The translations under genes and the position numbers were made by a program. DNA of 64,000 nt from Patescibacteria group bacterium (GTDB lineage: Bacteria > Patescibacteriota > Saccharimonadia > UBA4664): the NCBI GenBank assembly GCA_028288925.1, contig JAQGHG010000010.1, positions 8,057 through 72,056 of the forward strand, written 5' to 3'. Under the pieces are notes generated by a model that was not told the DNA's origin, searched no databases, and saw only the letters and a program-made list of their open reading frames with translations. Shown here piece after piece: positions 1,856 to 37,564 of this stretch (the stretch's first letter is position 1; each line of letters starts with the position of its first letter).

Positions 1856-1941
1856 TGGTGCGCGAGAGAGGAGTCGAACCTCCACGTCCTTGCGGACACT
1901 AGTACCTGAAACTAGCGTGTATACCATTTCACCACTCGCGC
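1856..1941 (-). tRNA. tRNA-Leu (anticodon CAG), class II with long variable arm, encoded CCA
   Basis: Reverse complement GCGCGAGTGGTGAAATGGTATACACGCTAGTTTCAGGTACTAGTGTCCGCAAGGACGTGGAGGTTCGACTCCTCTCTCGCGCACCA. 7-bp acceptor stem; anticodon stem CTAGT/ACTAG with loop TTCAGGT; long variable arm; GGTTCGACTCC T-arm. Confidence 0.9.
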
Positions 1942-7604: not shown

Positions 7605-9131
7605 TTAGCGTTCTTCGGTGGACATGTCGTCGGAAGTAGCCTCGAGGGTCGGCGCGGGCGTTTGACCCAGGTGCTCCTTGATGGCTTGAGCCTTGGCCGG
7701 ACCGATGGCGGCTGAGACCTCTTCGAGCGTGGCGAGCTTGACGCCGCGCACCGAGCCGAAGCGCCGGATGAGGAGTTTGCGGGTAGCCGGGCCGACGCCG
7801 GGGATCTCGTCGAGGAGGCTGTGGGTGGCGCGCTTGCCGCGAAGGATGCTCTGGTACGTGATGGCGAAACGGTGGGCTTCGTCGCGCACACGCTGGAGCA
7901 GCTGGAGGACATGGCTGGAGGCCGGCAGCAGGATGCTCTCGAAGTCTGTGTTGGCGGTGACCCAGGCCTCGTTGTCCCAGTGGCCGGCGACCCCCTCTTG
8001 CTTGAGGTGGCGGCGAATAATTTCTTCTTCGCGCTTGGCTAAGCCGATAGCCGGGACGCTCAGGCCTTGGGCATCGAGTACGCTAAGGGCGGCGGCGAGC
8101 TGGCCTTGGCCGCCGTCGATCAGGAGCAGGTCGGGCTTGGGCCATTCGGCGGCGTTTTTGGGGCTGAAGCGCCGGGTGATGACCTCGCGCATATGGCCGT
8201 AGTCGTCGTTGCCGGTGAGGTTCATCTTGAAGCGTTTGTACTCGTCGCGGTTGGGCACACCGTCGTTAAACACCACCATGCTGGCCACATTGTCGACGCC
8301 GCCGAGATGCGAGATGTCGTAGGCTTCGATCCGGCGCGGAATGCTCTTGAGCTCCAGGCGTTCGGCCAGTCCGGTGAGCGCCTGGTCGCGCGTGAGGTCG
8401 AAGGCTTCTTTGTCGCCAAATACCATTTGTTTGCCAAACGAGCGCAGGTCGGTGAGCTGGTCGCGCAGACGGGCGGCGTGCTCGAAGTCTTTCTTTTTGG
8501 CGGCGCGCTGCATTTCGGTTTCGAGCTGGGTCATAAGCTTGGTTTGCTCGCCCTTGAGGTAGAGCTCGAGCTTGCGGATGCCGCGGCGGTAATCGATGGC
8601 GTCGATGGCGCCTTCTTCGGGACCAGGGCACAATCCAAGGTGGTATTGTAGGCAGCCGCGCTTGGGCCAGTTGGCGTGGGTGATGTAAGGGAAGACTTTG
8701 CGCAGCATACGCATGGCCCGGCGCAGCGAGTCGCTGGAGGTGAAGGGACCGTAGTAATGAGCGCGGTCGTCGAGCGGCCGCCGCACATAACTAACGACCG
8801 GGAAGTCGTCGGCCGAGATTTTGACGTACAGGAAGTTTTTGTCGTCCTTGAGATCGATGTTGTACTTGGGCTTGTAGCGTTTGATGAACTCTGACTCCAG
8901 AAATAGCGCCTCGACCTCGCTACCTACGGTGACCCACTCGGTGTCGGCGATATCGGCTACCAGGAGCCTCGTTTTGGGGTCGCGGTGCTTGTTTTGGAAA
9001 TAGCTCATGACGCGGTTTTTGAGCACGGCGGCTTTGCCGATGTAAATAATTTTACCCTTGGCGTCACGGTGGAAATACACCCCGGGCTCGGCCGGGAGGG
9101 TCTTGAGTTTGTCGCGGAGGTGGTCGGTCAT
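7605..9131 (-). CDS. uvrC: excinuclease ABC subunit C
   Basis: GIY-YIG N-terminus (PAEPGVYFHRDAKGKIIYIGKA), UvrC middle region and C-terminal HhH. Start set at ATG 9131 (MTDHLRDK); the 200-aa upstream extension of the ORF is rejected. Confidence 0.9.
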   Translation of the reverse strand: MTDHLRDKLKTLPAEPGVYFHRDAKGKIIYIGKAAVLKNRVMSYFQNKHRDPKTRLLVADIADTEWVTVGSEVEALFLESEFIKRYKPKYNIDLKDDKNFLYVKISADDFPVVSYVRRPLDDRAHYYGPFTSSDSLRRAMRMLRKVFPYITHANWPKRGCLQYHLGLCPGPEEGAIDAIDYRRGIRKLELYLKGEQTKLMTQLETEMQRAAKKKDFEHAARLRDQLTDLRSFGKQMVFGDKEAFDLTRDQALTGLAERLELKSIPRRIEAYDISHLGGVDNVASMVVFNDGVPNRDEYKRFKMNLTGNDDYGHMREVITRRFSPKNAAEWPKPDLLLIDGGQGQLAAALSVLDAQGLSVPAIGLAKREEEIIRRHLKQEGVAGHWDNEAWVTANTDFESILLPASSHVLQLLQRVRDEAHRFAITYQSILRGKRATHSLLDEIPGVGPATRKLLIRRFGSVRGVKLATLEEVSAAIGPAKAQAIKEHLGQTPAPTLEATSDDMSTEER

Positions 9132-9216
9132 GAGAGTATTATACCTCATACTTCTATTGACATGGATAGCGCTTTGTGTTACTATGTGTTTACTCGAAAG
9201 AGTACCCCCCCTGTTC

Positions 9217-9456
9217 ATGCGGCTGATGGCCGCTGACGAAAGGCTTGAAAAAATGGCCGACCGCGCAGACTCCCCGAGGCCGTTCGAATTCGACATCCTG
9301 GAGGCGCCCTCTACTACGAGTCTCAAGCAGGCTCTGGCCTCCCTCCTAAGGGTGACCGGCCTCGGCATCGCGGATGTGGACTTGCAGTACATCGCCTTTG
9401 ATGGCCCCAAAGGTGCCGTGTTCACGCTCCTGGTCACGCGCAAGAGCGCCATGTGA
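9217..9456 (+). CDS. small hypothetical protein (uncertain)
   Basis: Only the part of ORF 9058..9456 that does not overlap uvrC or its promoter; weak RBS; followed by a strong terminator. Confidence 0.25.
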   Translation: MRLMAADERLEKMADRADSPRPFEFDILEAPSTTSLKQALASLLRVTGLGIADVDLQYIAFDGPKGAVFTLLVTRKSAM

Positions 9457-9523
9457 CCCACCCGCCTCTCCCCATCCAGCCGCCTATGGCTGTGCGGGGA
9501 GAGGCCACCCCAGCACTTATACC

Positions 9524-9556
9524 AAAAAAGACCCGCGCCTGGCGGGTCTTTTTGTG
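9524..9556. terminator. bidirectional intrinsic terminator (GACCCGC-gcctg-GCGGGTC flanked by A6 and T5)
   Basis: 7-bp GC stem; A-run on one side and T-run on the other; immediately downstream of the minus-strand gene that ends at 9574. Confidence 0.75.
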
Positions 9557-9573
9557 CTGACGAGGCGGCTGCC

Positions 9574-9843
9574 TTAAGCGGCCTGGTCGAAGTCTTCTTG
9601 GGTCTCTTTGGCGGTGTTGCTATCGCCGCGGTGGCTGTTCTTGCCACCTTCGCTAGCGACTTTGCGTACCTCATCCTTGTCGCGGTTGGCGAAGTTGCCG
9701 GGGTTGTTTTCCTTACCCTGCTTCTGGCCAATCTCCGAGTAGAACTCCGGACCGCGTTCGTCGCGGACCTTCTCGCCGCCTTTGCGGCCGGCCTCGGCCG
9801 TGGTCATTGTGTCGTCTTTTTGGTCGTCATTCTTGGTTGCCAT
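9574..9843 (-). CDS. KGG-repeat general stress protein (YciG/GsiB/Con-10-like)
   Basis: Short hydrophilic protein with RKGGE / GQKQGKEN / GGKNSHRG repeats; strong AAGGAGGAAG RBS. Confidence 0.7.
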   Translation of the reverse strand: MATKNDDQKDDTMTTAEAGRKGGEKVRDERGPEFYSEIGQKQGKENNPGNFANRDKDEVRKVASEGGKNSHRGDSNTAKETQEDFDQAA

Positions 9844-9986: not shown

Positions 9987-12845
9987 CTATGTGTGAACCG
10001 CTGTTTTGGAAGTCTTTTTGGCAGCCGCTGCCTCGAAGATGCGCTTGAGGTATTTGCCGGTATGACTACCGGTTTCTTTGGCGACTTGCTCGGGTGTGCC
10101 GAGGGCGATGACCATGCCGCCGCCGGAGCCGCCTTCGGGGCCCATGTCGATGAGCCAGTCGGAGCATTTGATGACGTCCAAGTTGTGCTCGATAACGAGC
10201 ACCGTGTTGCCGGTATCGACCAGCGCGTTGAGCACTCCCAGCAGGCGGTTGACGTCCTCGAAGTGGAGGCCGGTGGTGGGCTCGTCGAGGATATAGAGGG
10301 TGCGGCCGGTGCTGCGGCGGGCGAGCTCGGCGGCGAGCTTGATACGCTGGGCCTCACCACCGGAAAAGGTAGTAGCGGACTGGCCGAGGTGGATGTAGCC
10401 TAGGCCGACTTTGTTGAGGGTGTCGAATTTGCGGCGGATGGCCGGATGGTTCTCGAAGAAGGTGACGGCTTCTTCGACGGTCATATCGAGCACGTCGGAG
10501 ATGTTTTTGCCTTTGTAGTGGATCTCGAGCGCTTCCCGATTGTAGCGCTTGCCTTTGCACTCTTCGCAGGTCACGTACACATCGGGCAGGAAGTGCATCT
10601 CGATCTTGATGATGCCGTCGCCACGGCAGAGCTCGCAGCGGCCGCCTTTGACATTGAAGCTGAACCGGCCGGCTTTGTAGCCACGTATTTTGGCCTCGGG
10701 GGTCTGGGCGAACAGCTCGCGGATGTCGGCGAAGACGCCGGTGTAGGTGGCGGGGTTGGAGCGCGGGGTGCGGCCGATGGGCGATTGATCGACGCTAATG
10801 ACCTTGTCGAGATTTTTGAGGCCTTGGATCTCATCGTGCTTGCCGGGGAGGTCGCCGGCACGGTGGTAAACTTGGGCGAGTTTCTTGGCCAGGATGTCGT
10901 TGACGAGGCTGGATTTGCCCGAGCCGGACACGCCGGTCACGCTCACCAGCATGCCGAGCGGGATGGTGACGTCGACATTCTGGAGGTTGTGCTCGCGGGC
11001 GTTTTTGATGATGAGCTGCTTGTGGTTGCCTGGGCGGCGCTTGGTGGGCGTCATGATGGCCTTGGTGCCGGAGAGGTATTGGCCGGTGAGGCTGCCGGGG
11101 GTAGCGGCTACCTCTTCGGGGGTGCCGGCCGCCACGATCTCGCCGCCGTGCTCGCCCGCCGCGGGGCCCACATCGATGACGTAGTCGGCCATACGGATGG
11201 TATCTTCATCGTGCTCGACGACGATGACGGTGTTACCAAGCTCGCGCAACCGTATGAGTGTGGCGATGAGGCGGTCGTTGTCGCGCTGGTGGAGGCCGAT
11301 GCTTGGCTCATCGAGGATGTAGAGCACGCCCATCAGGCTAGAGCCGATCTGGGTGGCCAGCCGGATGCGCTGAGCCTCGCCGCCAGCTAGCGTGTTGGCA
11401 CTGCGGTCGAGCGTGAGGTAGTTGAGGCCGACGTCGCGTAGGAAGGTCAGGCGGGCGCATATCTCTTTGAGAATTTGGACGGCGATTTGAGCTTCGCGCG
11501 GCCCTAATTCCAGTGTTTCGAACAGCTTGGCCGCCTCGCCGATAGAAAGCATGGTGAGGTCAACGATGGATTTGCCACCCACCGTCACGGCCAGGATTTC
11601 GGGCTTGAGGCGCTTGCCGTGGCAAACGGGGCATTCGCGCTCGGCCATGTATTTTTCGATCTCTTTGCGCACGAATTCCGAATCGGTCTCATGGTAGCGC
11701 CGCTCCATATTGGGGATCACACCTTCGTAGACGGTGTGATAGGTGCGGCCGCCGGGGCCGCGCATGGTGATCTCGGCGTCACCGGAGCCATACAGGATGA
11801 CACGCAGGTCGGCCGGCTTCATGTCCTGGACCGGCGTGTCGAGCGAGAAGTCGTAGGTCTTGGCGACGCCCTCGAGCAGCTTGGTGTACCAGCTGAGGCG
11901 GCTAGTGGTCTTGGCCCACGGCCGGATGGCGCCTTCGGCCAGGGTGAGACGGCGGTTGGGTATGACGACTTCGGGATCGACCTCGAGCTTGGTGCCGAGC
12001 CCGGTGCAGTGCGGGCAGGCGCCGTGGGGCGAGTTGAACGAGAAGTTGCGCGGCGCGATCTCGGGCAGCGAGATTTCGCGGTGTACCGGGCAGGCATAGT
12101 GCTCGGAGTGAATGTGCTCGGTGCCGTCTTCTGCTTGGAGCACTTTGATGATGCCGTCGCTGAGGTTGAGGCCGTGCTCCACGCTCTCGGTGAGGCGCTG
12201 GCGAATTTCGGCGTCGACGGCCACGCGGTCGACCACGGCTTCGACGGTATGCTTCTTTTGTTTGTCGAGAGCCGGGAACTCATCAATATCCATAACGGCG
12301 CCGTCGACGCGCAGCCGCGTGTAGCCGGCCTTCTTGAGCTCGGCCACTACCTGGCGATGCTCGCCTTTTTTGTCGTCTATGACCGGCGCGATTAGCATAA
12401 CCCGCGTACCGGCCGGGAGTTCGAGGATTTGGTCGACGATCTGGCCGGGCGTCTGGCGGGTGACTTCGTTGCCGCAAATAGGACAATGCGGTATACCCAC
12501 GCGGGCATAGAGCAAACGCAGGTAATCATAAATTTCGGTGACGGTACCGACGGTAGAGCGAGGGTTGCGCGAGGAGCTCTTCTGGTCGATGGAGATGGCC
12601 GGACTTAAGCCGTCAATCTGGTCGACGTCGGGCTTCTCCATAAGGCCAAGGAATTGCCGCGCGTAGGCCGAAAGCGATTCGACATAGCGGCGCTGACCTT
12701 CGGCATAGATGGTATCGAAGGCAAGCGACGATTTGCCCGAGCCGGAAAGGCCGGTAATAACGACGAGTTTATCGCGCGGTATCTCGACGTCGATATTTTT
12801 GAGGTTGTGTTCCCGGGCGCCCCGGACAACGATCTTATCTGTCAT
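9987..12845 (-). CDS. uvrA: excinuclease ABC subunit A
   Basis: Two ABC ATPase modules ([12 protein letters not shown]... and [10 protein letters not shown]), zinc-finger CxxC pairs; ~953 aa. Start set at ATG 12845 ([17 protein letters not shown]). Confidence 0.95.
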
Positions 12846-25630: not shown

Positions 25631-26809
25631 CTAGCGGTCAAACAACCAGAGCCCTATTTCTTCATCATAAAGACGCTTGGCGAAGTCATGGAAGACAATG
25701 GCGTCGGGAGAATTAAGCGGCTGGTCTTTTTTCCAATACGACCAGTTCGTGGCTTCGTCGACGGCGCTTTTGTCCTGCGAAAACAGATTGATAGATACTT
25801 GGTAACCCTGGCCTTTGAGCTTGAGCGCCTCATCTACGATGCCGCCCAGAATGGCCTGCCGCTTCTCGGGTGTGAGCGTGACCGTGTCGTGTTCGTCTAA
25901 GGTGTACTTACGGCCGAAGGAACCGGTGTTGAGCCAAATCTGCTTAACGCCGAGCTGGTCGGCCGCTTCTTTGGCCAAAGTCGCGTTGAGGTACTCGCTG
26001 GCGTCAAAGATGCCGGCACCTGGCTTTTTGGCACGGGGCGTCCAAGGGAAGCCCTGTAGGCCGAAACTATCAATGAGGCCGCGACTAATACCTTTGACAT
26101 AGGGCACGAGGCTGACATATTCGCCCTTGGCCCAGTCGAAGTCGTCGTTAGTGTACGTAGCGGAGTTGAGCATCACGCTAGCTTTTGATTTAGGGAAGTA
26201 GGTCTTCTGGATGTTAACGAAACGGTTGATATTGGCGGCGAAGTCGGCGGGGGTGGAGTTATGGTGGTTCCAATACGGGAGATTCGCCTCAGGGAAGGCC
26301 ACCCACATGCCCATCTGCTCGTCGGTGACACCGTTTGCCTTGAGGTTTGTAAAGTAAGCTGTAATCCAGGGGTCATAGAGGCCATCGCGAAATTCAGTAA
26401 AGTCAACGCTCCCCCAGCTAGCCACCGGCTCCATCACTACTAGTGGCATAACGCCATAATGTTTAAACTCTTTCAGACGCACAGCCATATCAGCGGCCAT
26501 CTGCTTGGCCTCTAGGGCGTCTTTTGGCATATCGGTGAATGTCATCATGGCGCTGGCGGCATATGAGCTACAGGCAGTCTGGAAAGCAGGCAAGGTACGG
26601 AGCTCGGGGGCGCTAGCCTTCTCAAGCCCACGAACAGGATCCCGGGCGTCACATCTGCTGCTGACGGTGTAAGTCTTGGCTTTATGCAGCCAGAGTTTGG
26701 GAAGGCTCACGATATGCTGGCCGCGTAGTCCCACTGAAGCAGTGTCCACGGCAAAGAGCGCCACAAGAAAGAAAATAAGGGTACAGATGATAATATCGCG
26801 GCGTTTCAT
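25631..26809 (-). CDS. hypothetical secreted protein (possible glycoside-hydrolase-like)
   Basis: N-terminal signal-anchor MKRRDIIICTLIFFLV. ATGA-coupled to the upstream GT2, which suggests a polysaccharide-processing role. Confidence 0.45.
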   Translation of the reverse strand: MKRRDIIICTLIFFLVALFAVDTASVGLRGQHIVSLPKLWLHKAKTYTVSSRCDARDPVRGLEKASAPELRTLPAFQTACSSYAASAMMTFTDMPKDALEAKQMAADMAVRLKEFKHYGVMPLVVMEPVASWGSVDFTEFRDGLYDPWITAYFTNLKANGVTDEQMGMWVAFPEANLPYWNHHNSTPADFAANINRFVNIQKTYFPKSKASVMLNSATYTNDDFDWAKGEYVSLVPYVKGISRGLIDSFGLQGFPWTPRAKKPGAGIFDASEYLNATLAKEAADQLGVKQIWLNTGSFGRKYTLDEHDTVTLTPEKRQAILGGIVDEALKLKGQGYQVSINLFSQDKSAVDEATNWSYWKKDQPLNSPDAIVFHDFAKRLYDEEIGLWLFDR

Positions 26810-28071
26810 CCTACGCCCTCTACACCCTTGCGATCCCAGCGCTGCCATTCTATATCTTCGCCGCGCATAACCATAAACAGGCTCTTTAGGAGCACGATGT
26901 ACTCAACCCAGACGAGCACATAGAACAATGGCCAGGTTAGAGGAAAGAGCCCGAGCACGTGCAGCTGGAGTTTTTGATGGCTAAACAGGGCCACCACAAG
27001 GTATGTGACGGAGACAAACATAACACCTAGGGCAAGTGAGATGAAATCGCCCGACAAGAAGCTATAGGTAAGCAAGAGACTGATGCCGATGGGTTCAAAT
27101 AGGAGCTGAAGTTCGGCCAGTAAGGTATATGGCAACACAAACCACGCCAATGAACGATTGTGCCGCTTATCCCGAGAGAAGAAGATGCGGCGGTACTTCA
27201 TAAACGTGTCGAATCGGCCTTTCTTCCAGCGCAAGCGCTGATTGATAAGGCCTTTGATGGTGGATGCTCCTTCCGTGTGACAGATCACGTCCTCGGCATA
27301 GACGGAATTGAGGCCGTAGTATCGAGTGCGCAGCGACATCTCGATGTCCTCAGTCTTGTTTTCGCCGTCAAATAGGCCGAGGCGATCGAAGGTGGTGGTA
27401 CGGCGGAAGGCGGCGCAGGCTCCGCCGTAGATGTATTCGGCTCCCAGAACGGAGTGGGCTCGTTTGTAGTAAAAACCAAATAGGTATTCGAGCGACTGGA
27501 GACGCCCGATGAGGGTAGCATTGTAGGCGACCTTGACGTTGCCTACAACCGCGTCCACGCTAGGGTCCTTGAAATATTCTACGAGGTTACTGATAGCATC
27601 GCGCTCAAAAACCGTATCGGCGTCCATGGTTACCACGATGTCGCCGCGGGAATGCTCGATGCCGTGATTGAGGGCGTGCCCCTTGCCGCCATTTTCCTTG
27701 TAGAAGTATTTGACCCGCGGGTTAGTCCGCCGAACAAGCTCCGGGTGTTGCGATAGGAACCTCATCATCTGGTTGTGCGAGCGGTCTGTGGAACCATCGT
27801 TTACCACTATAACTTCGAGATTGGGGTATGAATTGCGCAAGAGTGACCGGACAGTTTTGAGAAGACCAACCTCTTCGTTCCAGGCTGGTACGATCACCGA
27901 TACGCGCGGTTCATAGGGCTGGAGGTGCAGACGGGCGACCCGGCGGCGACGCAACGCTTCCTTGACGGTGTGTAATGGCGAGATGAGCAAGAACACATAG
28001 TATTTGATGAGCATGGCGCTGGCGAAGAAGACCGCCCAGCCCCGCAAAATTTCAAACCAGTGAGTATCCAA
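26806..28071 (-). CDS. processive family-2 glycosyltransferase (PgaC/IcaA-like)
   Basis: TTG start; VVNDGSTD, TMDADT, QRLRWKKG (QxxRW), N- and C-terminal TM helices. Confidence 0.8.
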   Translation of the reverse strand: MDTHWFEILRGWAVFFASAMLIKYYVFLLISPLHTVKEALRRRRVARLHLQPYEPRVSVIVPAWNEEVGLLKTVRSLLRNSYPNLEVIVVNDGSTDRSHNQMMRFLSQHPELVRRTNPRVKYFYKENGGKGHALNHGIEHSRGDIVVTMDADTVFERDAISNLVEYFKDPSVDAVVGNVKVAYNATLIGRLQSLEYLFGFYYKRAHSVLGAEYIYGGACAAFRRTTTFDRLGLFDGENKTEDIEMSLRTRYYGLNSVYAEDVICHTEGASTIKGLINQRLRWKKGRFDTFMKYRRIFFSRDKRHNRSLAWFVLPYTLLAELQLLFEPIGISLLLTYSFLSGDFISLALGVMFVSVTYLVVALFSHQKLQLHVLGLFPLTWPLFYVLVWVEYIVLLKSLFMVMRGEDIEWQRWDRKGVEGVG

Positions 28072-28075
28072 TGTT

Positions 28076-28729
28076 CTACTGTCCTATATTCTGCAGGCTA
28101 ACAAACTCTGCTTTGGCGGTAGTGATAGTGCCCGTGGTAGTATCTTCTAGATCAAGTAAGAGCTGCCCCTGACGGCTCTCGGGGAGAAGGTACTGTCCCG
28201 TCTTGGCCTCCATATGGCTTACGGTCGTAATGCGATACATGTAGCGCCAGCCTTTGTCGGTGTCGACAAAGATATTGCCGTCCACTGTGAGTGCGCTTGG
28301 GTCGTCGATAGTACGCCAACCTTGCCGTAAGTACACCAGGAGATCGCCAAGGTTACCGCTTTTGGCGGTGGTGAGCAGAAGGTAGTGGCCTGTGTTTGAG
28401 CGGGCCTCCCAAGTGTTGTTGGGGGTGGTGATAGCCGGAGCCAGAGGGAGCTTTACCTGGCGGCTGGCGATGCGCAAGGTGGTGGGGGCACCATAGCCGC
28501 CGATGCGCTTGGAGGGATCGGCGGCGTAGGCCGACTTGGGAACGCTGGGGGCGAAGGGTTTGGCGTCGACTTTGGCGACAGCGGTAGCAAACGGTAAGTC
28601 TTGATCGAAGGCCGTCTCATAGCTATTAGTAAAGATGTAAACGGTGAGCACGCCGGACGCCAACATCAAGAGGGTCGTAATGGTACGACCGAAGACACGG
28701 CGGGCACTGACGTGGCGTCGACGCTTCAT
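28076..28729 (-). CDS. sortase-fold-like protein lacking catalytic Cys (no Cys in sequence)
   Basis: Signal-anchor; NTGHYLL (His) and GDLLVYL...YRITTV resemble sortase strands; the expected TLxTC is replaced by LLLDLEDTT. Confidence 0.3.
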   Translation of the reverse strand: MKRRRHVSARRVFGRTITTLLMLASGVLTVYIFTNSYETAFDQDLPFATAVAKVDAKPFAPSVPKSAYAADPSKRIGGYGAPTTLRIASRQVKLPLAPAITTPNNTWEARSNTGHYLLLTTAKSGNLGDLLVYLRQGWRTIDDPSALTVDGNIFVDTDKGWRYMYRITTVSHMEAKTGQYLLPESRQGQLLLDLEDTTTGTITTAKAEFVSLQNIGQ

Positions 28730-28995
28730 CGTTGCGGCACCTTCTTGAGCTTTAGCACGAATAGGATGAGGAGAACGACGGCGTTTACAATAACTACGCT
28801 GCTCACAAAGAAAGCGAACAGCACGACCAGGGCTTGGTAAGGGCTAACGGACACTATTGTTTCTCCAACCTATACGCGGCTATTTTGAATGGTAGCGCTA
28901 GCTTCCGTTTTTATCACGTTTGGCCCTCAGAGTCAAAGCTGCGGGCTTGGCATAAGCATTATCACAAGGCGCGAATGCCAGCTCTACAGGCCTGC

Positions 28996-29025
28996 AAAAA
29001 CCCCGCTTGGGGCGGGGGGTTTTTA
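28996..29025. terminator. bidirectional intrinsic terminator (A5-CCCCGC-ttggg-GCGGGG-T5)
   Basis: Directly downstream of the deacetylase gene that ends at 29059. Confidence 0.7.
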
Positions 29026-29058: not shown

Positions 29059-30915
29059 TTACTTGCCGACCTGCGGCAGGACTTCCTTGATAGCCTGGGC
29101 GATGGTGAGGACACCAAGGCCGGAGTTTTTGATGATCTGGAGCTCGGCGTCCAGGTCGGCCGGCTTGGTGAGGTAGTCGGTATCGGTGGGGTCGATCGGC
29201 GTGGCTCCGACTTCGTGGTAGACCAGGATGAGCCAGGTCTTGTCACGCGCGGCTTGGTTGACCCATGCCTGCACCTGCGCCGGCGTAGTGCTGGCGTAAA
29301 TGTTCTGGACCTTGAGAGTCGTGAGGCTCAGGTTGTCCTTGGTGTTGTAGCCGGAGTCGGTGGAGCGCTGCGTCTGGTAGTACTTGAGGCCTTCGGTGAT
29401 AGTCTTGGCGTTGTAGGCGCCGAAGGGATAGGCGAAGTTGCTGATGGTGCCGCCGAAGTTGGCCTTAAGGGTGGTCTGGCTGTTTTTCATTTCGGCGGTC
29501 AGCTTGGCGGCCGTAAGCGTCGTGAGATCCGGGTGGGTCACGGAGTGCGAAGCAATCTCGCTCCCCTGAGCCTGCAGGGCTTTGATCTGGGTAACGCTCA
29601 TGTAGTCGGGCTGGTCGGTGAGCTCGCCGGAGATGATGTAGAAGGTGGCGGGCTCGTTGTACTTCTTGAGCAACGGCAGGGCGTTGGTGTACTGGTTGGT
29701 CCAGCCGTCGTCAAAGGTGAGGGTGACGAGGCCGCGGCTAAACGGTGAGGGCTGGTAGATCCCAAAGCTGTAGTCGTCGGTGGTCAAGTAGCCCTTGGCG
29801 GCGATGAGGTGGAAGACAGTAGCCGAGACGGCACCGGCCGGCATGTCGAATTCGGCTGAGGCTTGGGCCCAGGTCGTGGACGGCAGAACTTTGCCGAGGT
29901 AGAAGTATTGGACAGTACCGTTACTCATCGTGACGCCCACATCGATCTCGGTGTCGGTGTTTGACTGGTACCAGTCGGTGAAGCGGTAGTGACCGCCGAC
30001 TTTGACCGGCTGGGGGGCGTAGTTCCAGTTGGCCGAGCCGCTGGTATAGCTGGTGACGTTTACTTTTACACTGCGGGAGCTGGCATGGCCGGTGTTTTCG
30101 TAGGTAAAGGCCGGGGTGTTGGTGCCCCAATAGTCGGAGGCCCAGCCTTGAGGCGTGGCGCCGTTGGCCGTCTCAAGACCAGGGTTGGGTATGCCGGCTG
30201 CCGGTGTGGGCGTAGGAGACGGGCTGGGCGTGGGGCTCGGCGTAGGCGAGGCAGAAGGGTTGGGGGTAGGCGAAGGGCTGGGACTGGCCGAGGGAGAGGG
30301 GGTGACGGTAGGAGAAGGGCTGGGCGTAACGGTGGGCGACGGAGAGGGGCTGGGAGTCGGGCTAGGGGTCGCGGCGGTCTCGGCCAACGAGTAGTTGTCG
30401 GTCTTGAGTGTACCGTTGCCGGCAATCACATGGAAGACCGTGACGTTCTTGGCGCCGGCCGGGGTAGTAAAGTCGACGCTCAGCTGCTTCCAGCTCGCGC
30501 TAGCCGGCACGTCGGCCAGCCAGACATAGCTGTAGTTGCCGGCCGCATCTTGGACCTGAGCATCAAGTTCGGTAGCAACACCCGACTGATACCAGTCGCT
30601 AAAGGTGTACTTGGTGCTAGCAGCTACGGCTACGGGGCTAAAGTACCACTTGGCGTCACCGCTGGAATAGCCCGAAACGGTCAGCCCTAGCGAACGGGCG
30701 CCGTTTTGGGCCCCGGTGGAGTCATAGCTGAAAGCGGCCGTGTTGGTGCCCCAGCCACCTTGGCTCCAGCCGGAGGGAAGGGCGCCTGCGGCTGTTTCGA
30801 CCGACGGATTTGTAATGAGGTTTGCCCCGGCCGCACGTGCCACTTCGGCGAGTGGCTGGGCAATGATGGCTAGGATTAAAGTGATACCAGAAAGAGCGGC
30901 AATGAGGCGCTTCAT
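29059..30915 (-). CDS. secreted protein: two tandem beta-sandwich (CBM-like) domains + Ser/Pro/Thr linker + CE4 polysaccharide deacetylase
   Basis: Internally duplicated N-domains ([17 protein letters not shown] / [17 protein letters not shown]); LTFDDGW...HSVTHPDL. Confidence 0.8.
30185..30375. repeat. Ser-Pro-Thr low-complexity coding repeat (linker)
   Basis: [27 protein letters not shown]... Confidence 0.8.
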
Positions 30916-31096: not shown

Positions 31097-31207
31097 TTAA
31101 TGGATGACACCGAAGAGTGAGAGCAGTAAACCGCCCGTACTCACGAGATGATATCCAACGAAGGCGACCAAAAATCCGGTACCAGCCAGCTTAACATAAC
31201 GCTTCAT
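31097..31207 (-). CDS. 36-aa hydrophobic peptide (MKRYVKLAGTGFLVAFVGYHLVSTGGLLLSLFGVIH)
   Basis: Starts 2 nt after the stop of the LPQTG mini-protein; not in the ORF track because it is under 60 aa. Confidence 0.3.
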   Translation of the reverse strand: MKRYVKLAGTGFLVAFVGYHLVSTGGLLLSLFGVIH

Positions 31208-31209
31208 GA

Positions 31210-31389
31210 TTAGCGCTTGTTAAATTTGGCCATGGCGGCGTAGACGATCGCCCAAACGGCGAGGCCGGCGGCGGCGGCGATGGCAATCGCGACAGCGCTG
31301 TGCATGCCCGTCTGGGGCAGAACGGCGGCGGTGGCGGCACCGAGAACGGCGGGAACAACCCCACCCTTGCCAGGTTCAATGCTCGACAT
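31210..31389 (-). CDS. 59-aa mini-protein ending in an LPXTG-type sorting signal (LPQTG + 22-aa hydrophobic stretch + KFNKR)
   Basis: AAAGGA RBS 7 nt upstream of ATG 31389; the C-terminal tripartite sorting-signal architecture is clear in the sequence. Confidence 0.5.
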   Translation of the reverse strand: MSSIEPGKGGVVPAVLGAATAAVLPQTGMHSAVAIAIAAAAGLAVWAIVYAAMAKFNKR

Positions 31390-31412
31390 ATTATGTCCTT
31401 TCGTTAAATTAC

Positions 31413-32504
31413 TTACCTTGCGACATTGGTCACAATGCGGTATCGGCGGCCAGCTACATCCCACCCGGCTTGGGGTGAGTTGAATTTGCGCTGGACGACG
31501 ATTTCGTACCAGGACCGAATAAATATGATCAAGCTAACAAAGCGCAGTATGTAGAACAAGGGAAAGGCGCCCATTACATTGGAGCGGGGGTTTTTGGCCG
31601 CGGCCCACATCGTAAACAGGGTGAAGATCAGGAGGTCGCTAAGGAACATGAGGGCTAGCGGACGATAATTTTGCCCCCACCAAGCCATGAAAGGCAGAAC
31701 GGTAAGCTGGGCGACCAGAATCCACTGCTCGAACATGACATAGCTCAGGTAGGCATCGATCTTTTGCGGGTGAAGCCCCACGCGATGGCGCATCATTACC
31801 TGGAAGTTACCCCGGTACCAGCGGCTGATTTGCTTCATGTAGTCAGTGAGGTCTTTGGGGTCTTGCGTGAAGGTTTTGGCCTGCGGAATGTAGGCAATCT
31901 TGCCGAGCCGGCCGCGGTGAATCTGCAGGGTGATGTCCATGTCCTCGGTGAGTGAGTCGACAGAGAAATCCAGCTTGTTCAGAATATCGGTACGGAACAC
32001 CGAGGTGGGTCCAGGGATAACCGGAATGACACCAAGGAACGCTTGGATCCGGCGCAAGATCTCCAGACCAAGCGTGTACTCATAGGTGCGGTACTTGGAG
32101 ATCCAGCCACCTTGCAAGCTCTGGATGTACCCGGTAGCGGCAACGTATTCGCGCGACAAGCGTGACTGCAGCTCACTAAAATAGGTGATGGCGAAGACGC
32201 CGTCGGCGTCGGCGATGTGCAGCCACTCGTAGCGGCTGATGATGCCGAAATGCTCGATGGCGTGCAGGATGGCCTTGGCCTTGCCACTCTGAGGCTGGTC
32301 GAGAATATTCTTGGCGGCTAACAGTTCTGAGGCTATTTTGACCGTGTCGTCCTTGGAGCCGTCGGACACTACGAAGATGTCGGCCGGGTGCTGGCCCGCG
32401 GCGATTGCCGAGTGTATAGTGTCGGCGATAACCATCTCCTCGTTGTGCGCGGGGATGACGAGAGCGAGCTTGCGTTTCTTAAACTGGTAGCGATTGAAGA
32501 TCAT
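31413..32504 (-). CDS. family-2 glycosyltransferase (QxxRW processive type)
   Basis: LVIPAHNEE, SDGSKDDT, ADADG, QISRWYRG; C-terminal TM helices. Confidence 0.75.
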   Translation of the reverse strand: MIFNRYQFKKRKLALVIPAHNEEMVIADTIHSAIAAGQHPADIFVVSDGSKDDTVKIASELLAAKNILDQPQSGKAKAILHAIEHFGIISRYEWLHIADADGVFAITYFSELQSRLSREYVAATGYIQSLQGGWISKYRTYEYTLGLEILRRIQAFLGVIPVIPGPTSVFRTDILNKLDFSVDSLTEDMDITLQIHRGRLGKIAYIPQAKTFTQDPKDLTDYMKQISRWYRGNFQVMMRHRVGLHPQKIDAYLSYVMFEQWILVAQLTVLPFMAWWGQNYRPLALMFLSDLLIFTLFTMWAAAKNPRSNVMGAFPLFYILRFVSLIIFIRSWYEIVVQRKFNSPQAGWDVAGRRYRIVTNVAR

Positions 32505-32638: not shown

Positions 32639-34033
32639 TTACGGCTTAACCTGAGACTTGATTTCGGTGTATGCCTGGTGCATGGTCTCGATGGTGAGAC
32701 CCGATACCTTGATGGCTTGGAGGTCGTGTTCGAAGTCTGCCGGGTGGCGGGCGTAGGAGCTGGGGCCGTTATCGATCTGGTGATACACCAGGATGAGCCA
32801 AGCGTGGTTGACGCGGGCGGTCTCTAGCCACGAATTGAGCTGCTCGGCCGAGGTGTTGGCGGTCATGTTCTGGACCATCAGACCGTAGGGATCGAGGTTG
32901 TCGGCGGTATTGAACCCGACATCGGTGGAGCGTGAGGTCTGATAGTTTTTCTGGACTTGGGCGGTGGTGGCAGCGTTGTAGGCGCCGTACGGCGGCGCGA
33001 AATCTGTCGGCTTGCCGTAGCACCTGGTGAGGTCCTTGTCGGAACGTTCAAGTTGGAACGCGGCGGCTTCGGCCTTCTGTTTCGTGAGGTCGGCGTGGTC
33101 TACCGTGTGCGATGCGATCTCGTGCCCGGCGTTGCGGAAGTCGTACAGTTGGCCGGGGGTAACGTAATCCTTCTCTTGGCCGACGTAGCCGGAAATGATG
33201 TACTGCGTGGAAGCGATGTTGTAGCGCTGCATAAGCGGCAGGGCATTGTCGTGAATGGAGCGCCAGCCGTCGTCAAAGGTGAGGGTGACGATGGGCCGGC
33301 TGAAGCCCTGTACCGTGGCCGGCTCCAGCGAGAAGTCGTCGGTCTCGAGGAAGCCCTTGCCGGCTAGAGGATGAAAAACCATGGCTTCGGTAACATCCTT
33401 GGGTATAAAGAATGACGCCTGGTACTGTGTCCAACCCGACGCGGGGGCGGCGACCTTGAGGTTGATGTATTGAGTGTGGCCGGCGGCGTCTCTGAGCATC
33501 AGGATAGCCCGGGTAGAAACATCCGAACGGTAATAATCGGAGTAGCGGTAGTAACCGCCAGGCTGTACCTTCACGGCATTGTAGTACCAGTCGGCGTCGC
33601 CGTCGGTGTAATTGGTAATGGCCGTCCGAACAGCATTAGCTGAGCCGTGGCCGGGCACGAGGCCGAAGGTGGCGTTATTTTTACCGTAGATATTGGTGCT
33701 CCAGCTGTACGGCGAAATACCGGTGGTATCCTCCACGTCGCCGTTCGGGACGAGGTCGGCGCCGGCAATCTCGGTGCTCCTAAGCTTAGCGCCCTTCGCT
33801 ACCGGAGTAGCTACGGTGGTGGCTCGAGAAGTTACCGCGTCGCCGGTATCGGAATCGGCGGCCACGACCTCAGCTTTGTCGCTGTGGTGCACAAAGGCGC
33901 CGGCACTACAGCGCGATTCAGTAATGGCGCGGCCGAGGTCTAGGCCGTTACGGCCGGCCACGTAGGAACCGCTGGCAATAGTGAGCGTAATAGCTGCTAC
34001 TATGATGGCTTTGCGAGGGAATTTCATTTGCAT
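32639..34033 (-). CDS. secreted beta-sandwich (CBM-like) + CE4 polysaccharide deacetylase (paralog of 29059..30915)
   Basis: LTFDDGWRSIHDNALPL...HTVDHADL. Confidence 0.8.
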   Translation of the reverse strand: MQMKFPRKAIIVAAITLTIASGSYVAGRNGLDLGRAITESRCSAGAFVHHSDKAEVVAADSDTGDAVTSRATTVATPVAKGAKLRSTEIAGADLVPNGDVEDTTGISPYSWSTNIYGKNNATFGLVPGHGSANAVRTAITNYTDGDADWYYNAVKVQPGGYYRYSDYYRSDVSTRAILMLRDAAGHTQYINLKVAAPASGWTQYQASFFIPKDVTEAMVFHPLAGKGFLETDDFSLEPATVQGFSRPIVTLTFDDGWRSIHDNALPLMQRYNIASTQYIISGYVGQEKDYVTPGQLYDFRNAGHEIASHTVDHADLTKQKAEAAAFQLERSDKDLTRCYGKPTDFAPPYGAYNAATTAQVQKNYQTSRSTDVGFNTADNLDPYGLMVQNMTANTSAEQLNSWLETARVNHAWLILVYHQIDNGPSSYARHPADFEHDLQAIKVSGLTIETMHQAYTEIKSQVKP

Positions 34034-34104: not shown

Positions 34105-34746
34105 TCAGGGACAATCGCGCGTTTCTTTGGATGCGCGAAAACTAATCGGCGCGGGAAGCCTGGCGGTGCGCACGATGTAGTAACGGTCGGTGACCTTCTG
34201 CGTGACGATACATTTGGCACCTGATATTTGCTCGGTAACGTCGACGGCAGTGCCAGCGGGGCTCGTGATAATACCCGTAACCTTCAGGTTGTACCCACCG
34301 GTAGCGCGAGGGCCTTCGCTGAGCGCGATGACGTTGCTGGTAGTGAAATCGACGGGCAAAAGCGGCGGCAACGGCTTAATATTGGCGTGGACCGCGGCCC
34401 AATACCGCTCCCACTGTGCCTGGGAGGTGATGATTTCCTGGCGTTGGGGGTAGGCGCCACGGCTGTCGCCTTCTACCAAAAGTTGAAACTCTTGCGAGAC
34501 ACCAGGCTCGGATATGGGGACCGGCGAGCCGCGCGGACCCACATAGGTGTGACCCTTTGCTACACAAGCGGGCGGTTCGCTCTCCATGATCGGGTAGCCG
34601 GCCCGGGCGCAAGCCGCGTATGAATCGATGGGCTCGGTAGGATGGCCCCGCAGCAGCCAGACCGCGCCGGCTAGCATGACGGCGAGACCCGTGAATACGA
34701 TGATTCGGTGCTTGTGCTTGGCCCAAATGAGAGCTAGCGGTGTCAT
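34105..34746 (-). CDS. exported protein, PrcB C-terminal-domain-like
   Basis: N-terminal TM; FQLLVEGDSRGAYPQRQEI...GGYNLKV...DRYYIV pattern. Confidence 0.35.
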   Translation of the reverse strand: MTPLALIWAKHKHRIIVFTGLAVMLAGAVWLLRGHPTEPIDSYAACARAGYPIMESEPPACVAKGHTYVGPRGSPVPISEPGVSQEFQLLVEGDSRGAYPQRQEIITSQAQWERYWAAVHANIKPLPPLLPVDFTTSNVIALSEGPRATGGYNLKVTGIITSPAGTAVDVTEQISGAKCIVTQKVTDRYYIVRTARLPAPISFRASKETRDCP

Positions 34747-34752
34747 CGTGGC

Positions 34753-35349
34753 CTACAGCTCTTTCGTGAGATCTTCGGGGAGTTTGCTGTTCTTGGATTC
34801 GACTATGTCGATGAGCTCGTCGACGAGCGCCACCGGATCGTGGCCGAAGATAATGCCGGTACGGGCGCGCTTGGCGGCCTTGAGGACGCGCTCAACTTCT
34901 TCGGTCATGCCGCCGGAGCCTAGCAGGACACCGATGGGTTTGCGCTCCTCGATGGCGATGGTGAGCTCGTTGAGTGTGCCGATGCGGCCGCCGACCATTA
35001 CGACGGCGTCGCAGGAGCGCACCAGCAGCAGGTTGCGGCCGGTGTACTCGAAGCCGGTGAAGACCACGGTGTCGAAGGCGTCGAGGGGCAACTGGTACTT
35101 CTTGACGTGGGCCAGGCGGCTGGCGGCCGGCGAGAAGCCGATGGAGGTGACGTGTTCGCCGCCGGCTTTCTTGGCGGCGATGGCCGCGTAGTACGGCAGA
35201 CCGCGGGTGGCGCCGGTGACTACCAGATGCCCCCGCCGGACGATCTCGTGCGCGACCTCGCCGGCCAAGCCTTTGGCCAGCTCGACGCTATCGCCGCGGG
35301 CCGCGCCGGATACGCAGATTTGGTAGCGCAACGGCGGCATTTTTGGCAT
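34753..35349 (-). CDS. LOG-family / TIGR00725 Rossmann-fold nucleotide-binding protein (nucleoside 5'-monophosphate phosphoribohydrolase-like)
   Basis: VSGAARGDSVELAKGLAGE...MVGGRIGTLNELT (PGGxGTxxE-like). Confidence 0.7.
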   Translation of the reverse strand: MPKMPPLRYQICVSGAARGDSVELAKGLAGEVAHEIVRRGHLVVTGATRGLPYYAAIAAKKAGGEHVTSIGFSPAASRLAHVKKYQLPLDAFDTVVFTGFEYTGRNLLLVRSCDAVVMVGGRIGTLNELTIAIEERKPIGVLLGSGGMTEEVERVLKAAKRARTGIIFGHDPVALVDELIDIVESKNSKLPEDLTKEL

Positions 35350-36596
35350 TATTTGACCTCCCGCGTGAGGCTTTCGGGCTTAATGATGGCGTTGTCGAGC
35401 TTGCCGAGGAGTTGCTCCTCGAGGACTTTTTCGCCCAGATAGCGCGCGAATACTTCGTTCCAGAGCGCCTCACGGAAATGGTACAGGTAGCGGTCCGGGT
35501 AGGCTATGGCATTGGAATAGCCCAGGCTGAGGTCCATGAGGTTGAACGTGACGGTGTCGTGAGATTCGCCCTTGAGGACGGCTACGTAGTCGAGACCGCG
35601 CCAAAAATCGAGTTCGGGATCGATTTCGTAGAGGATGTCTTCGGCGCGGCGCCAATGCAGGTCTTCGGGCTGGACGTGCGGCTCGAAGATTTCGGGATGA
35701 TTCTCATTCTTGAGCTTGCCGAAGTAGCGCTGGATGACGCGCCAGTGGATGTGGGCATTGTCGGTTATTTTGACGTGCGCGGGGTCGGCGATGAGGGTGT
35801 CGGAAACTATGGCGCCGAAATTCTTTTTGGCTTGCATAAGCTTAAAGAACGAACTGTAGAGACGGATTTCATTGAAGTAATGAAACAGCAGCGGCATGAC
35901 CTTGAGCGTAATACCCGTCATGTGGGTTTCCTTCATGGGCATAATGGCGATGGCGCCCATTTCTTTGGAATGGGTGATGTTGTGGCGTTTTTTGGCGATA
36001 AAGTGCTCGGCGACGTCACCCCATTTTTCGACTGCGAATGGTACCACCCGAATGCGGCGCGGCTCGAAATCCTCGGGGGTAAGGTCGAGATATTGGCGGT
36101 CGAAGCCGTTGAGCCAGTCGGCGTCTTCGACGAAACGCAGGGCCAGGAAGAGCTCATAAATATCCTCGTGCTCGAGCAGGGCCGAGACCAGGTGGTAGCC
36201 GAGGCGGTCCATGATGGCCATGGGTGGGTTGCGGCGGAGCATGTCGCGGGCCTTGGCCTCGGTGAGAAACCAGCCGTCCTTGGGCAATGGCGCGGCTTCG
36301 GCGGCTTTGACGATGAGCGGGATCATTTCGCGCAGATCGCTGGGGTCGGCGCCGCCGATGGCCTTGGCCAAATGGGCGTCGTGGAGGCCGACCTGCTTGA
36401 TGAGCGCGTCGTAGAGCTCCGGTCCGGTCGCATCGGCGGAAAGTCCAAGTTGTTTGGCGGTGCGGGCGGCTTTTTGGGCAATCTCGGCGCCCAGCTTTAC
36501 ATCTACGCCTTTTTGGTGCGTGCGCAGCTCGAGCTGGTGCAAGGCGTGGTCGAAGAGGGGTTCTTTGGCCTGGAGAAAGCGCCCGATGGTACTCAT
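35349..36596 (-). CDS. conserved hypothetical cytoplasmic protein (415 aa), no recognisable domain
   Basis: Start/stop overlaps (ATGA, TAATG) with the flanking pfkB and LOG genes indicate one operon. Confidence 0.6.
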   Translation of the reverse strand: MSTIGRFLQAKEPLFDHALHQLELRTHQKGVDVKLGAEIAQKAARTAKQLGLSADATGPELYDALIKQVGLHDAHLAKAIGGADPSDLREMIPLIVKAAEAAPLPKDGWFLTEAKARDMLRRNPPMAIMDRLGYHLVSALLEHEDIYELFLALRFVEDADWLNGFDRQYLDLTPEDFEPRRIRVVPFAVEKWGDVAEHFIAKKRHNITHSKEMGAIAIMPMKETHMTGITLKVMPLLFHYFNEIRLYSSFFKLMQAKKNFGAIVSDTLIADPAHVKITDNAHIHWRVIQRYFGKLKNENHPEIFEPHVQPEDLHWRRAEDILYEIDPELDFWRGLDYVAVLKGESHDTVTFNLMDLSLGYSNAIAYPDRYLYHFREALWNEVFARYLGEKVLEEQLLGKLDNAIIKPESLTREVK

Positions 36597-37564
36597 AGCG
36601 TAGTGATCTTTAATTTCATGCGTTTGACGCGCTGGGTCTTGAGGATGCCGGTCTTGCCGCCGATCTGGGCGACGACGCTGGAGGCGTTGGCGGCCGCCAG
36701 GCTGAGGGCGTCTTCCATAACGAGGCCCCGGGCGAGGCCGGCCACGAAGCCGGAGCCGAAGGCGTCGCCGGCGCCGAGGCGGTCCACGGGTTTCGCCTTC
36801 TGGTAGACGCCGGCCTGGTAGAGCTTGCCGGTGGCCGAGGCGTAGGAGCCGGCCGGGCCGTTGGTGCCGATCACATAGGGGCAGGTGTCGGCGGCGCGGA
36901 CGACGGTCTCGCGGACGTCTTCGCCGCCAAACAGTACGCGCAGCTCCTCGGCGTTGGCTTTGAGCACCGTCACGAGCGGCAGGAGGCTGCGCAGCTTCTT
37001 GGTCTGCGCCAGCTCGGCGTTGCCGGGATCGAGCGCCACTTGGATGCCGTGATTGTTGGCGTGCTTGAGCAGCTTGCCGAGCAGGTCCATGTTGCCAGCT
37101 AGCGAGGTAATGTAAAACCAGTCGGCTTCGAGCGTGCGGATGGCAATCTCTTTGGCCTTGAGTTCGTGTGAGGCGCCGCGGTGTGTTAGGATGGTGCGTT
37201 CGCCGCTGGGCGCCAGCAGGATGGTGGAATAACCGGTGCCGAGCTTGGTGTCATAAACGAGACGGTCGAGCGCCACGCCTTCGCGGCGCAGAGCCCGCAC
37301 GACTTCGCCGCCGGCTGGGTCGTGGCCGATCTTGCCGACGTATCCCGCCTGCAAGCCTTGCCGGGCAAAGGTAACGGCCGCATTAGTGGCGCCGCCGCCG
37401 GTATCGAAGTAGACATTGTCGACATCGATCTTGGCGCCGAGCGGGAACTGCTCGACGTAATCCCGGGTACGGACATCGCGCCGGGCATGCAGCGCTTTGC
37501 CGCTCAGGAAGACGTCTTGAGTAGCGGCGCCGAATGTTAGAATTTTGACATTTATATCAGCCAT
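36593..37564 (-). CDS. PfkB-family carbohydrate/nucleoside kinase (ribokinase-like)
   Basis: DTGGGATNAAV and GAGDAFGSGF motifs. Confidence 0.8.
   Translation of the reverse strand: MADINVKILTFGAATQDVFLSGKALHARRDVRTRDYVEQFPLGAKIDVDNVYFDTGGGATNAAVTFARQGLQAGYVGKIGHDPAGGEVVRALRREGVALDRLVYDTKLGTGYSTILLAPSGERTILTHRGASHELKAKEIAIRTLEADWFYITSLAGNMDLLGKLLKHANNHGIQVALDPGNAELAQTKKLRSLLPLVTVLKANAEELRVLFGGEDVRETVVRAADTCPYVIGTNGPAGSYASATGKLYQAGVYQKAKPVDRLGAGDAFGSGFVAGLARGLVMEDALSLAAANASSVVAQIGGKTGILKTQRVKRMKLKITTL

Follow-up and report, generated by a model that had tools for sequence, protein, structure and literature searches.

Sortase substrates, as textbooks describe them, consist of a signal peptide, a passenger domain and a sorting signal. 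The exosortase/PEP-CTERM systems described by Haft and colleagues are linked to exopolysaccharide loci, GT2 enzymes associated with XrtG or XrtP are known, and some PEP-CTERM proteins are very small. The ica operon, in turn, has the gene order icaA-icaD-icaB. Here, we analyzed a 64,000-nucleotide stretch from a Patescibacteria group bacterium (assembly GCA_028288925.1, contig JAQGHG010000010.1), referred to in the following as the window, which contains a gene for a 59-residue protein made up of a complete LPXTG sorting signal and a short N-terminal tail (the mini-gene and the mini-protein). The mini-protein is probably a genuine passenger-less sortase substrate, from which a peptide would be moved to an amine of the cell envelope, and which would work together with the polysaccharide module formed by the neighboring GT2 and CE4 genes.

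The mini-protein shares with the canonical LPXTG substrates of Gram-positive bacteria (TIGR01167/PF00746) a C-terminal LPxTG motif, a hydrophobic span of about 20 residues and a basic tail, and intact sortases are encoded next to it in related lineages. It differs from them by the absence of a Sec signal peptide, by the 16–27 low-complexity residues that precede the motif, by a precursor size of 50–66 residues, by its occurrence, as far as seen, in Saccharibacteria only, and by its tie to a GT2/CE4 locus. In the window and in clade A of the family, the locus resembles IcaADBC/PgaABCD in the order GT2, small transmembrane (TM) protein(s), CE4, and in a GT2 that has the D,D,D/TED/QxxRW residues and a PgaC_IcaA match, whereas its small proteins have one TM segment each, show no similarity to IcaD/PgaD, and one of them bears an invariant sortase motif. 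The features common to exosortase/PEP-CTERM are a sorting signal composed of motif, TM segment and basic tail, a transpeptidase, and a co-encoded PgaC-like GT2 (weak NCBIfam matches). The transpeptidase is, however, a sortase with a cysteine transpeptidase fold, unrelated to the polytopic exosortase, the motif is LPxTG and not PEP, and the phylum is monoderm-like. In the account given in PMC11623550, GspA of Actinomyces oris is an LCP-glycosylated LPXTG protein anchored by the housekeeping sortase (Wu et al. 2014) and, as far as that account goes, offers a precedent for a sortase substrate that carries a glycopolymer to the wall. GspA is there a full-size, secreted and LCP-glycosylated protein, whereas the mini-protein shows no evidence of glycosylation and has a processive GT2 as its partner. 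We classify the mini system as sortase/LPXTG sorting in a minimal, signal-peptide-less and polysaccharide-linked form.

Anatomy of the Mini-Protein Precursor

The mini-gene is located on the minus strand with its ATG at position 31389 and its stop codon at 31210–31212. Its product (MSSIEPGKGGVVPAVLGAATAAVLPQTGMHSAVAIAIAAAAGLAVWAIVYAAMAKFNKR, 59 amino acids) is laid out as a 23-residue N-tail, LPQTG, a single TM helix and a KFNKR tail. A preliminary description of the locus had reported this open reading frame (ORF), its good ribosome-binding site and its tripartite signal, as well as its position downstream of a GT2 gene and 2 nucleotides ahead of a 36-residue ORF. These observations hold: the sequence is as reported, GAAAGGA precedes the start codon, the coordinates were confirmed on the minus strand, and the NCBIfam model LPXTG_anchor (TIGR01167) matches the protein with 19.7 bits, above its curated cutoff of 15.9. 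Pfam, including PF00746, yields no match to the 59-residue protein of the window. Most orthologous loci have an aaggag/aaagga equivalent of the Shine-Dalgarno sequence ahead of the ATG. Scanned in six frames, the whole window yielded one signal combining LPxTG, a hydrophobic span and a basic tail, that of the mini ORF.

The claim that the protein has essentially no passenger and no canonical signal peptide was also borne out. The mini ORF starts 23 nucleotides after the stop codon of the 363-residue GT2 gene (31413..32504), and the open frame 5' of its ATG measures 25 codons and overlaps the 3' end of the GT2 gene; there is, therefore, no room for a passenger or a signal peptide, and the longer upstream frame with a signal peptide that the preliminary description had considered does not exist. 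No passenger domain precedes the motif, which is reached after 23 residues in the window protein and after 16–27 across the family. Inspection of the sequence, for which no dedicated predictor was applied, revealed no n/h/c architecture with a cleavage site that would define a Sec signal peptide.

Hydropathy places the TM segment at residues 31–49. The AlphaFold2 (AF2) model, computed with an alignment of 112 sequences, contains a single helix that encompasses residues 27–57 with predicted local distance difference test (pLDDT) values of 88–98, and shows the N-tail as a low-confidence coil. By the positive-inside rule, the mini-protein is predicted to be a single-pass protein in the N-out/C-in orientation. 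A helical hairpin with the N-tail as a second TM segment was considered and judged improbable, as it is unsupported by the AF2 model and the segment has just 11–16 hydrophobic residues.

The Mini-Protein Family and Selection on the LPxTG Motif

The mini-gene is real and not a chance ORF, with its length, frame and motif kept in more than 170 homologues, nearly all of which have 50–66 residues. The identical protein is on record at NCBI as 'hypothetical protein JWN01_447 [Patescibacteria group bacterium]', and the eight close homologues have 56–61 residues. With a profile built from 25 sequences, 314 proteins in the database were matched at E≤1. Among the best 120 of these 314 matches almost all have 50–65 residues, every named source belongs to Saccharimonadales/Saccharibacteria, and the annotation is just 'hypothetical' or 'LPXTG cell wall anchor domain-containing protein'. 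HMMER, run exhaustively over 1.84 billion cluster representatives, returned 81 matches at E≤1e-3, about 73 of them with 51–82 residues. The family is, by these searches, intrinsically mini, with no grading into the C-termini of large surface proteins, and, as far as seen, is restricted to Saccharibacteria/Saccharimonadia. TIGR01167 matches 16 of 25 family members at E≤0.01, and neither Pfam nor NCBIfam contains a family specific for the mini-peptides. No account of them came up in full-text searches on LPXTG/sortase with Saccharibacteria, Patescibacteria, Candidate Phyla Radiation (CPR) or TM7, although other papers could exist; a preprint on the CPR Pam pilus is unrelated to them.

The N-tail spans 16–27 residues with a median of about 17–18, and the 23-residue tail of the window protein is long for the family. 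It is composed of 19% Ala, 18% Gly, 16% Val and 12% Thr, with less than 1% Asp plus Glu and a net charge of 0 or +1, while the last 10 residues of the protein have a net charge of +1 to +4 in 121 of 122 mini-proteins. A frequent N-terminal sequence is M-x-Y-G-K-G, in place of which the subgroup of the window has MSSIEPGKGG. A tyrosine is found within the first five residues of 139 of 173 family members, and a lysine in the N-tail of 102 of 173. Examples of motif-spanning stretches are ...GVAVLPNTGDSR... and ...TAAVLPQTGMHS.... The TM sequences are wholly different between clades (AAGLAVW... versus LFIVAASLIALGV...).

In two alignments, of 25 and 112 members and with mean column identities of 41% and 39%, respectively, the only invariant columns are the L, P, T and G of LPxTG. 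The conservation of LPQTG in orthologues, on which the preliminary description depended, holds for these four residues in 25/25 and 112/112 aligned proteins. LPxTG occurs in 122 of the 124 retrieved proteins, and both exceptions read LPNTS. The x position accommodates 14 different residues (N 48, F 14, A 13, Q 10, V 10, and others). At the codon level, across 27 loci, the leucine is encoded by all six of its codons, the proline and the threonine by all four of theirs, and the glycine by three; the x position uses 14 codons. Because L, P, T and G are invariant while their synonymous codons are nearly all in use, the motif is under purifying selection, and the pattern indicates that this selection is long-standing and acts on exactly the four residues read by a sortase, with x left free. 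Pairwise pN/pS values (nonsynonymous over synonymous differences per site) of the two small ORFs are 0.54 (mini-gene, window's clade) and 0.62, which is weak evidence because synonymous sites are saturated (pS about 0.7).

These data bear on the proposal, also made in the preliminary description, that the mini-gene is a degraded remnant of a full-length LPXTG surface protein, and on the related one that it is a spurious ORF in GC-rich DNA. The N-tail does resemble the linker ahead of LPVTG in a canonical protein of a related genome (see below). However, the more than 170 homologues are of the same size and have strong ribosome-binding sites, synteny is conserved, the motif is invariant amid saturated synonymous sites, and the 23-nucleotide gap to the GT2 stop codon offers no upstream coding capacity. 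Furthermore, a search for full-length LPXTG relatives at the position of the mini-gene returned none: all relatives are mini-sized, and no longer frame was found in them. With the motif under purifying selection as well, we consider both proposals refuted.

Genomic Neighborhood across Saccharibacteria

Genes within 6 kb of the mini-gene were counted in 31 non-redundant loci that carry it (individual loci are designated L001 and so on). A GT2 of the same orthogroup is present in 30 of them, the exception being a contig end; a CE4 polysaccharide deacetylase is present in 27 and a sortase in 10. When the GT2 of the window was used as bait, 25 loci were obtained from GTDB species representatives, 24 of which were usable. 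Those that bear a taxon name are all Candidatus Saccharimonadia/Saccharibacteria or 'Patescibacteria group', and the rest are unnamed metagenome-assembled genomes (MAGs). An LPxTG ORF of 53–65 residues with a strong ribosome-binding site lies within 6 kb of the GT2 in 21 of the 24 usable loci. For the reverse linkage, four distant family members were picked for their long contigs alone, and all four show a CBM/Big_7-deacetylase, the mini-gene, a sortase (PF04203) and a GT2. The linkage of mini-gene, GT2, CE4 and sortase holds in both directions.

Three GT2/CE4 loci (L016, L029 and L033) have no mini-LPxTG ORF within ±6 kb even under relaxed motifs; in these, the mini-gene has either moved or diverged past the search pattern. 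One of them, L033, encodes a sortase of the second kind described below 2.3 kb from the GT2.

In clade A, the mini-gene is directly downstream of the GT2 gene, in clades B and C it lies 0.2–2.8 kb from the GT2 gene or on the other strand, and in many loci it is transcribed together with the sortase and convergent to the GT2, so that its immediate neighbors are clade-specific. In the clade-B locus L021, it is positioned between genes at 8424–9578 and 9996–11231 (minus strand), in a convergent or divergent arrangement; the products, 384 and 411 residues long, are secreted or have TM segments and lack an NCBIfam assignment, and the GT2 is not adjacent. A clade-C sub-alignment, used as a query for related metagenome loci, retrieved only two loci.

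Sortases Encoded beside the Mini-Gene

The suggestion that the peptide is processed by a sortase-like enzyme is supported by the intact PF04203 sortases found near the mini-gene in 10 of the 31 loci (E 3.4e-26 for L027), which retain the His, Cys and Arg residues. In eight loci (L024, L025, L026, L031, L036, L038, L039 and L042), the sortase gene starts about 70–90 nucleotides 3' of the mini-gene on the same strand. Over the 10 loci, the distance between sortase and mini-gene is mostly about 200–350 nucleotides, or else about 2 kb. The mini ORF is the sole ORF with a sorting signal within ±10 kb of the mini-adjacent sortases.

Two kinds of sortase can be distinguished. The first has about 196–201 residues and the sequence LTVQTCSG (L036, 10246–10836; L038, 10265–10870; L039, 10252–10842), and the second has about 235 residues and the sequence LITCTP (L027, 7050–7760; L037, 12299–13006). 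Neither kind comes close to the NCBIfam cutoff of any named class (C, D, E, F and GN), and the sortases of the second kind (type 2) obtain their best, though sub-cutoff, scores against the class C/E models. The two kinds may represent unclassified sortase classes.

The proximity of the type-2 sortases to the class C/E models, below cutoff as it is, would suit a reaction in which the sortase polymerizes or cyclizes the peptide instead of attaching it to the wall, either into a minimal pilin-like fiber through the lysine of YGKG or head-to-tail through the α-amine. M-x-Y-G-K-G is common at the N-terminus of the mini-proteins, and YGKG superficially recalls the pilin motif YPKN. On the other hand, the N-tail lysine is missing in 41% of the members, including clade-A orthologues such as MYTPTPTPVPAVLGA..., the Ig/CnaB domain that marks pilins is absent, and the sortases fall short of the class C cutoff. 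Polymerization or cyclization is, therefore, highly improbable in our view.

Proposed Sorting Pathway

We infer the membrane topology, the cleavage, the acceptor and the biological role of the mini-protein as follows. The basic tail would be kept in the cytoplasm. The short N-tail would be moved across the membrane with no cleavable signal peptide, following the Pf3 coat/YidC route of insertion, by which N-tails that are short and uncharged are able to pass. LPxTG would thereby be exposed at the outer face of the membrane, in reach of a membrane-anchored sortase that would cut between T and G. This enzyme is encoded beside the mini-gene in about one-third of the lineages, and would presumably act in trans in the lineage of the window. 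A peptide of about 20–27 residues (MSSIEPGKGGVVPAVLGAATAAVLPQT in the window) would be transferred to an envelope amine, with a peptidoglycan precursor as the default acceptor, and the G-MHS...KFNKR TM fragment would be left in the membrane. In this process, the mini-gene would act with the adjacent GT2, the coupled 36-residue TM peptide and the CE4 deacetylases, which together would constitute a poly-N-acetylglucosamine (PNAG)/chitosan-like exopolysaccharide module.

Several observations weigh against this pathway. No sortase was detected in the 64-kb window, either in a scan for the TLxTC motif or by tblastn with five Saccharibacteria sortases (best E 0.47, spurious), nor was one found within ±6–10 kb in any clade-A or clade-B locus. 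The mini-protein has no canonical Sec signal peptide, and the export of its N-tail is, therefore, something that we infer. The mature peptide has no recognizable domain and is poorly conserved. Finally, the clade-A mini-gene is packed between the GT2 gene and the gene of a second TM peptide, an arrangement that also fits a pure membrane-subunit role.

LPxTG is still invariant in clades A and B although no sortase was found within 6–10 kb. In one clade-A genome (L001, 13241–13777), the mini-gene lies 3 kb from the gene of a 178-residue protein of the canonical LPXTG type, which has a signal peptide, a low-complexity passenger rich in His, Asp and Lys, and a C-terminus of the form ...TTAATLPVTG, TM segment and RRRA. 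The presence of a canonical LPVTG protein in this genome indicates that clade A, to which the window belongs, uses a sortase, and this enzyme is likely to be one acting in trans. More than one in two CPR genomes carries a sortase family (PMC6744442). The pre-motif linker of the L001 protein is similar to the mini N-tail (TTAATLPVTG versus TTAAVLPLTG), and the minis may have evolved from the C-terminus of a canonical LPXTG protein.

A family that has neither passenger nor signal peptide implies that the cargo is the peptide of about 20 residues itself, or that the function resides in the act of sorting or in the TM fragment left over. The strict genetic coupling to GT2 and CE4, observed in episymbionts with very small genomes, suggests that sortase chemistry and the assembly of exopolysaccharide or envelope are linked in a way not yet described, and the system may bear on how Saccharibacteria build their host-attachment surface. 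Culture and genetic manipulation have become feasible for some Saccharibacteria.

The Polysaccharide Module

The features of the window are compiled in Table 1. The DAD, TED and QISRW motifs of the 363-residue GT2 are hallmarks of processive, membrane-embedded β-glycan synthases. Its match to the PgaC/IcaA model does not begin before model position 45 and reaches 93.8 bits, far below the equivalog cutoff of 422. Its TM helices are exclusively C-terminal and it lacks an N-terminal TM helix, which the second GT2 of the window (421 residues) possesses. The GT2 encoded beside a mini-gene and a sortase in L036/L037 is 46% identical to the 363-residue GT2 and 24–25% identical to the second one. Both CE4 deacetylases that flank the 363-residue GT2 are secreted.

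Table 1. Mini-gene, polysaccharide module and pseudo-sortase operon: coordinates in the window.
Feature	Position	Strand	Evidence or remarks
Mini-gene, 59-residue passenger-less LPXTG precursor	31210..31389, stop codon included	-	TIGR01167, homologues, alignments, AF2
LPQTG sortase recognition motif codons, residues 24–28	31306..31320	-	Invariant columns, codon usage
Shine-Dalgarno GAAAGGA of the mini-gene	31396..31402	-	6 nucleotides upstream of ATG
36-residue single-TM peptide gene, conserved Y-[HQ]-[LVF]	31097..31207	-	2-nucleotide spacer after mini stop
Processive GT2 polysaccharide synthase, 363 residues	31413..32504	-	DAD99, TED186, QISRW225; partial PgaC/IcaA-like match
CE4 polysaccharide deacetylase, 464 residues, upstream of GT2	32639..34033	-	Syntenic in L001, L002, L007
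CBM4_9 + CE4 secreted polysaccharide deacetylase, 618 residues, last gene of the unit	29059..30915	-	Syntenic in L001, L003, L008
Terminator-like GC hairpin followed by T-run, closes the deacetylase-GT2-mini-36-residue-deacetylase unit	29001..29017	-	
42-residue TM peptide, GTG start, MSVSPYQALVV...	28726..28854	-	
Predicted catalytically dead sortase homologue, 217 residues	28076..28729	-	hhalign, Foldseek
Full-length PgaC/IcaA-like GT2, 421 residues	26806..28071	-	
TM protein without family match, 405 residues	25631..26848	-	

The 36-residue ORF (MKRYVKLAGTGFLVAFVGYHLVSTGGLLLSLFGVIH) is joined to the mini ORF through the sequence TAA-TC-ATG. Of 10 clade-A species, 9 have the peptide, with its start codon −1 to +5 nucleotides from the mini stop codon, and it is predicted from this layout to be translationally coupled to the mini-gene. 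Clade B has no separate 36-residue peptide; there, the CE4 gene that comes right after the GT2 gene opens with a basic-hydrophobic anchor bearing (Y/W)HL, a motif shared with the stand-alone peptide of clade A (L017, 7074–8426; L020, 7095–8471; L021, 7069–8427). As a lead, the 36-residue peptide may be a split-off or stand-alone form of this clade-B deacetylase anchor, generated by gene fission or fusion.

The preliminary description had also envisaged that the protein is a small membrane-bound part of the machinery that makes the polysaccharide, and the GT2 linkage in 30 of 31 loci fits this idea. It becomes a rival of the sortase-substrate reading if the mini-protein, alone or with the 36-residue peptide, is taken to be mainly a small TM accessory subunit of the GT2, like IcaD/PgaD, that supplies the TM helices missing from the enzyme; sortase cleavage would then be absent, or would do no more than mature or regulate the protein, whose TM fragment would carry the function. 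The gene order GT2, small TM, small TM, CE4 mirrors icaA-icaD-icaB, and the truncated PgaC/IcaA match and missing N-terminal TM helix of the 363-residue GT2, set beside the N-terminal TM helix of the 421-residue enzyme, would accommodate such a subunit. The mini-gene is also found near a GT2 more often than near a sortase, and within clades A and B its TM half (AAGLxxWxxxY) is better conserved than the N-tail. By contrast, the residues invariant across the whole family are the L, P, T and G alone, none of them in the TM segment, and the TM sequences are clade-specific. In many loci, the mini-gene is co-transcribed with the sortase and convergent to the GT2. Moreover, neither the 59-residue nor the 36-residue protein matches an IcaD/PgaD model in Pfam or NCBIfam, and the mini-protein has one TM helix, not two. 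We consider a role mainly as a synthase subunit unlikely, although it could coexist with that of a sortase substrate. Of the two small proteins, the 36-residue peptide would be the more plausible one to serve the synthase purely as IcaD does.

If the mini-protein is a sortase substrate, as we favor, its acceptor could be other than peptidoglycan. The amines that CE4 would generate on a polymer of N-acetylglucosamine made by the GT2 could serve as the sortase nucleophile, besides or instead of peptidoglycan, and the product would be a hydrophobic peptide–polysaccharide conjugate. Its formation would formally resemble the synthesis of lipo-chitooligosaccharides by NodC/NodB/NodA, with a ribosomal peptide replacing the fatty acid. 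A search of the literature for sortase ligation to amino sugars gave nothing usable, and we hold such a conjugate to be decidedly unlikely. Were it true, the pseudo-sortase operon described below would represent a derivative of this partnership that works without catalysis.

Upstream of the module, at 34105..37564 on the minus strand, the window contains a synteny block with genes for a PfkB-family kinase, a 414–415-residue protein without family match, an LDcluster4 protein and a PrcB_C-domain protein. This block precedes the deacetylase-GT2-mini unit in the window, in L001 and in L003.

A Pseudo-Sortase Operon in the Same Window

The preliminary description had drawn attention to a sortase-fold-like protein without Cys in the vicinity of the mini-gene. 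The sortase homology of this 217-residue protein is upheld, whereas its link to the mini-protein as a processing enzyme is not. Five homologues of 209–217 residues are available, all without Cys. The protein has no Pfam or NCBIfam match, and its BLASTP comparison with a real sortase is not significant (E 2.1). Alignment of the family profile with five Saccharibacteria sortases by hhalign gives a probability of 97.9% (E 4.8e-13) over 146 columns. Foldseek, run with an AF2 model of low confidence (pLDDT 56.8), retrieved nothing but sortases among its 50 best PDB matches (best E 1.7e-6). In the profile alignment, the sortase YGH, which includes the catalytic His, stands opposite YLRQ, and QTC, which includes the Cys, stands opposite DLE. 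By these comparisons, the 217-residue protein is a catalytically dead sortase homologue.

Its gene belongs to a conserved operon (25631..28854, minus strand, in the window) for a TM peptide of 42–59 residues, the pseudo-sortase, a PgaC-like GT2 of about 422 residues and a protein of about 395–405 residues. The four-gene operon recurs in L040 and L041, and in the MAG DATIIV01 it is located on a different contig from the mini-gene. Having lost both the catalytic His and Cys, and belonging to a separate operon that is elsewhere unlinked to the mini-gene, the 217-residue protein is rejected as the enzyme that processes the mini-peptide. In Saccharibacteria, a sortase-fold protein thus occurs in a second setting, parallel to the mini-gene loci, with a small TM peptide and a GT2, and a pseudo-sortase accompanying a polysaccharide synthase has apparently not been described before.

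Elsewhere in the window, a tRNA gene (RF00005, 53 bits) is located at 1859..1941 on the minus strand, and is the sole match in the window that reaches an Rfam gathering threshold.

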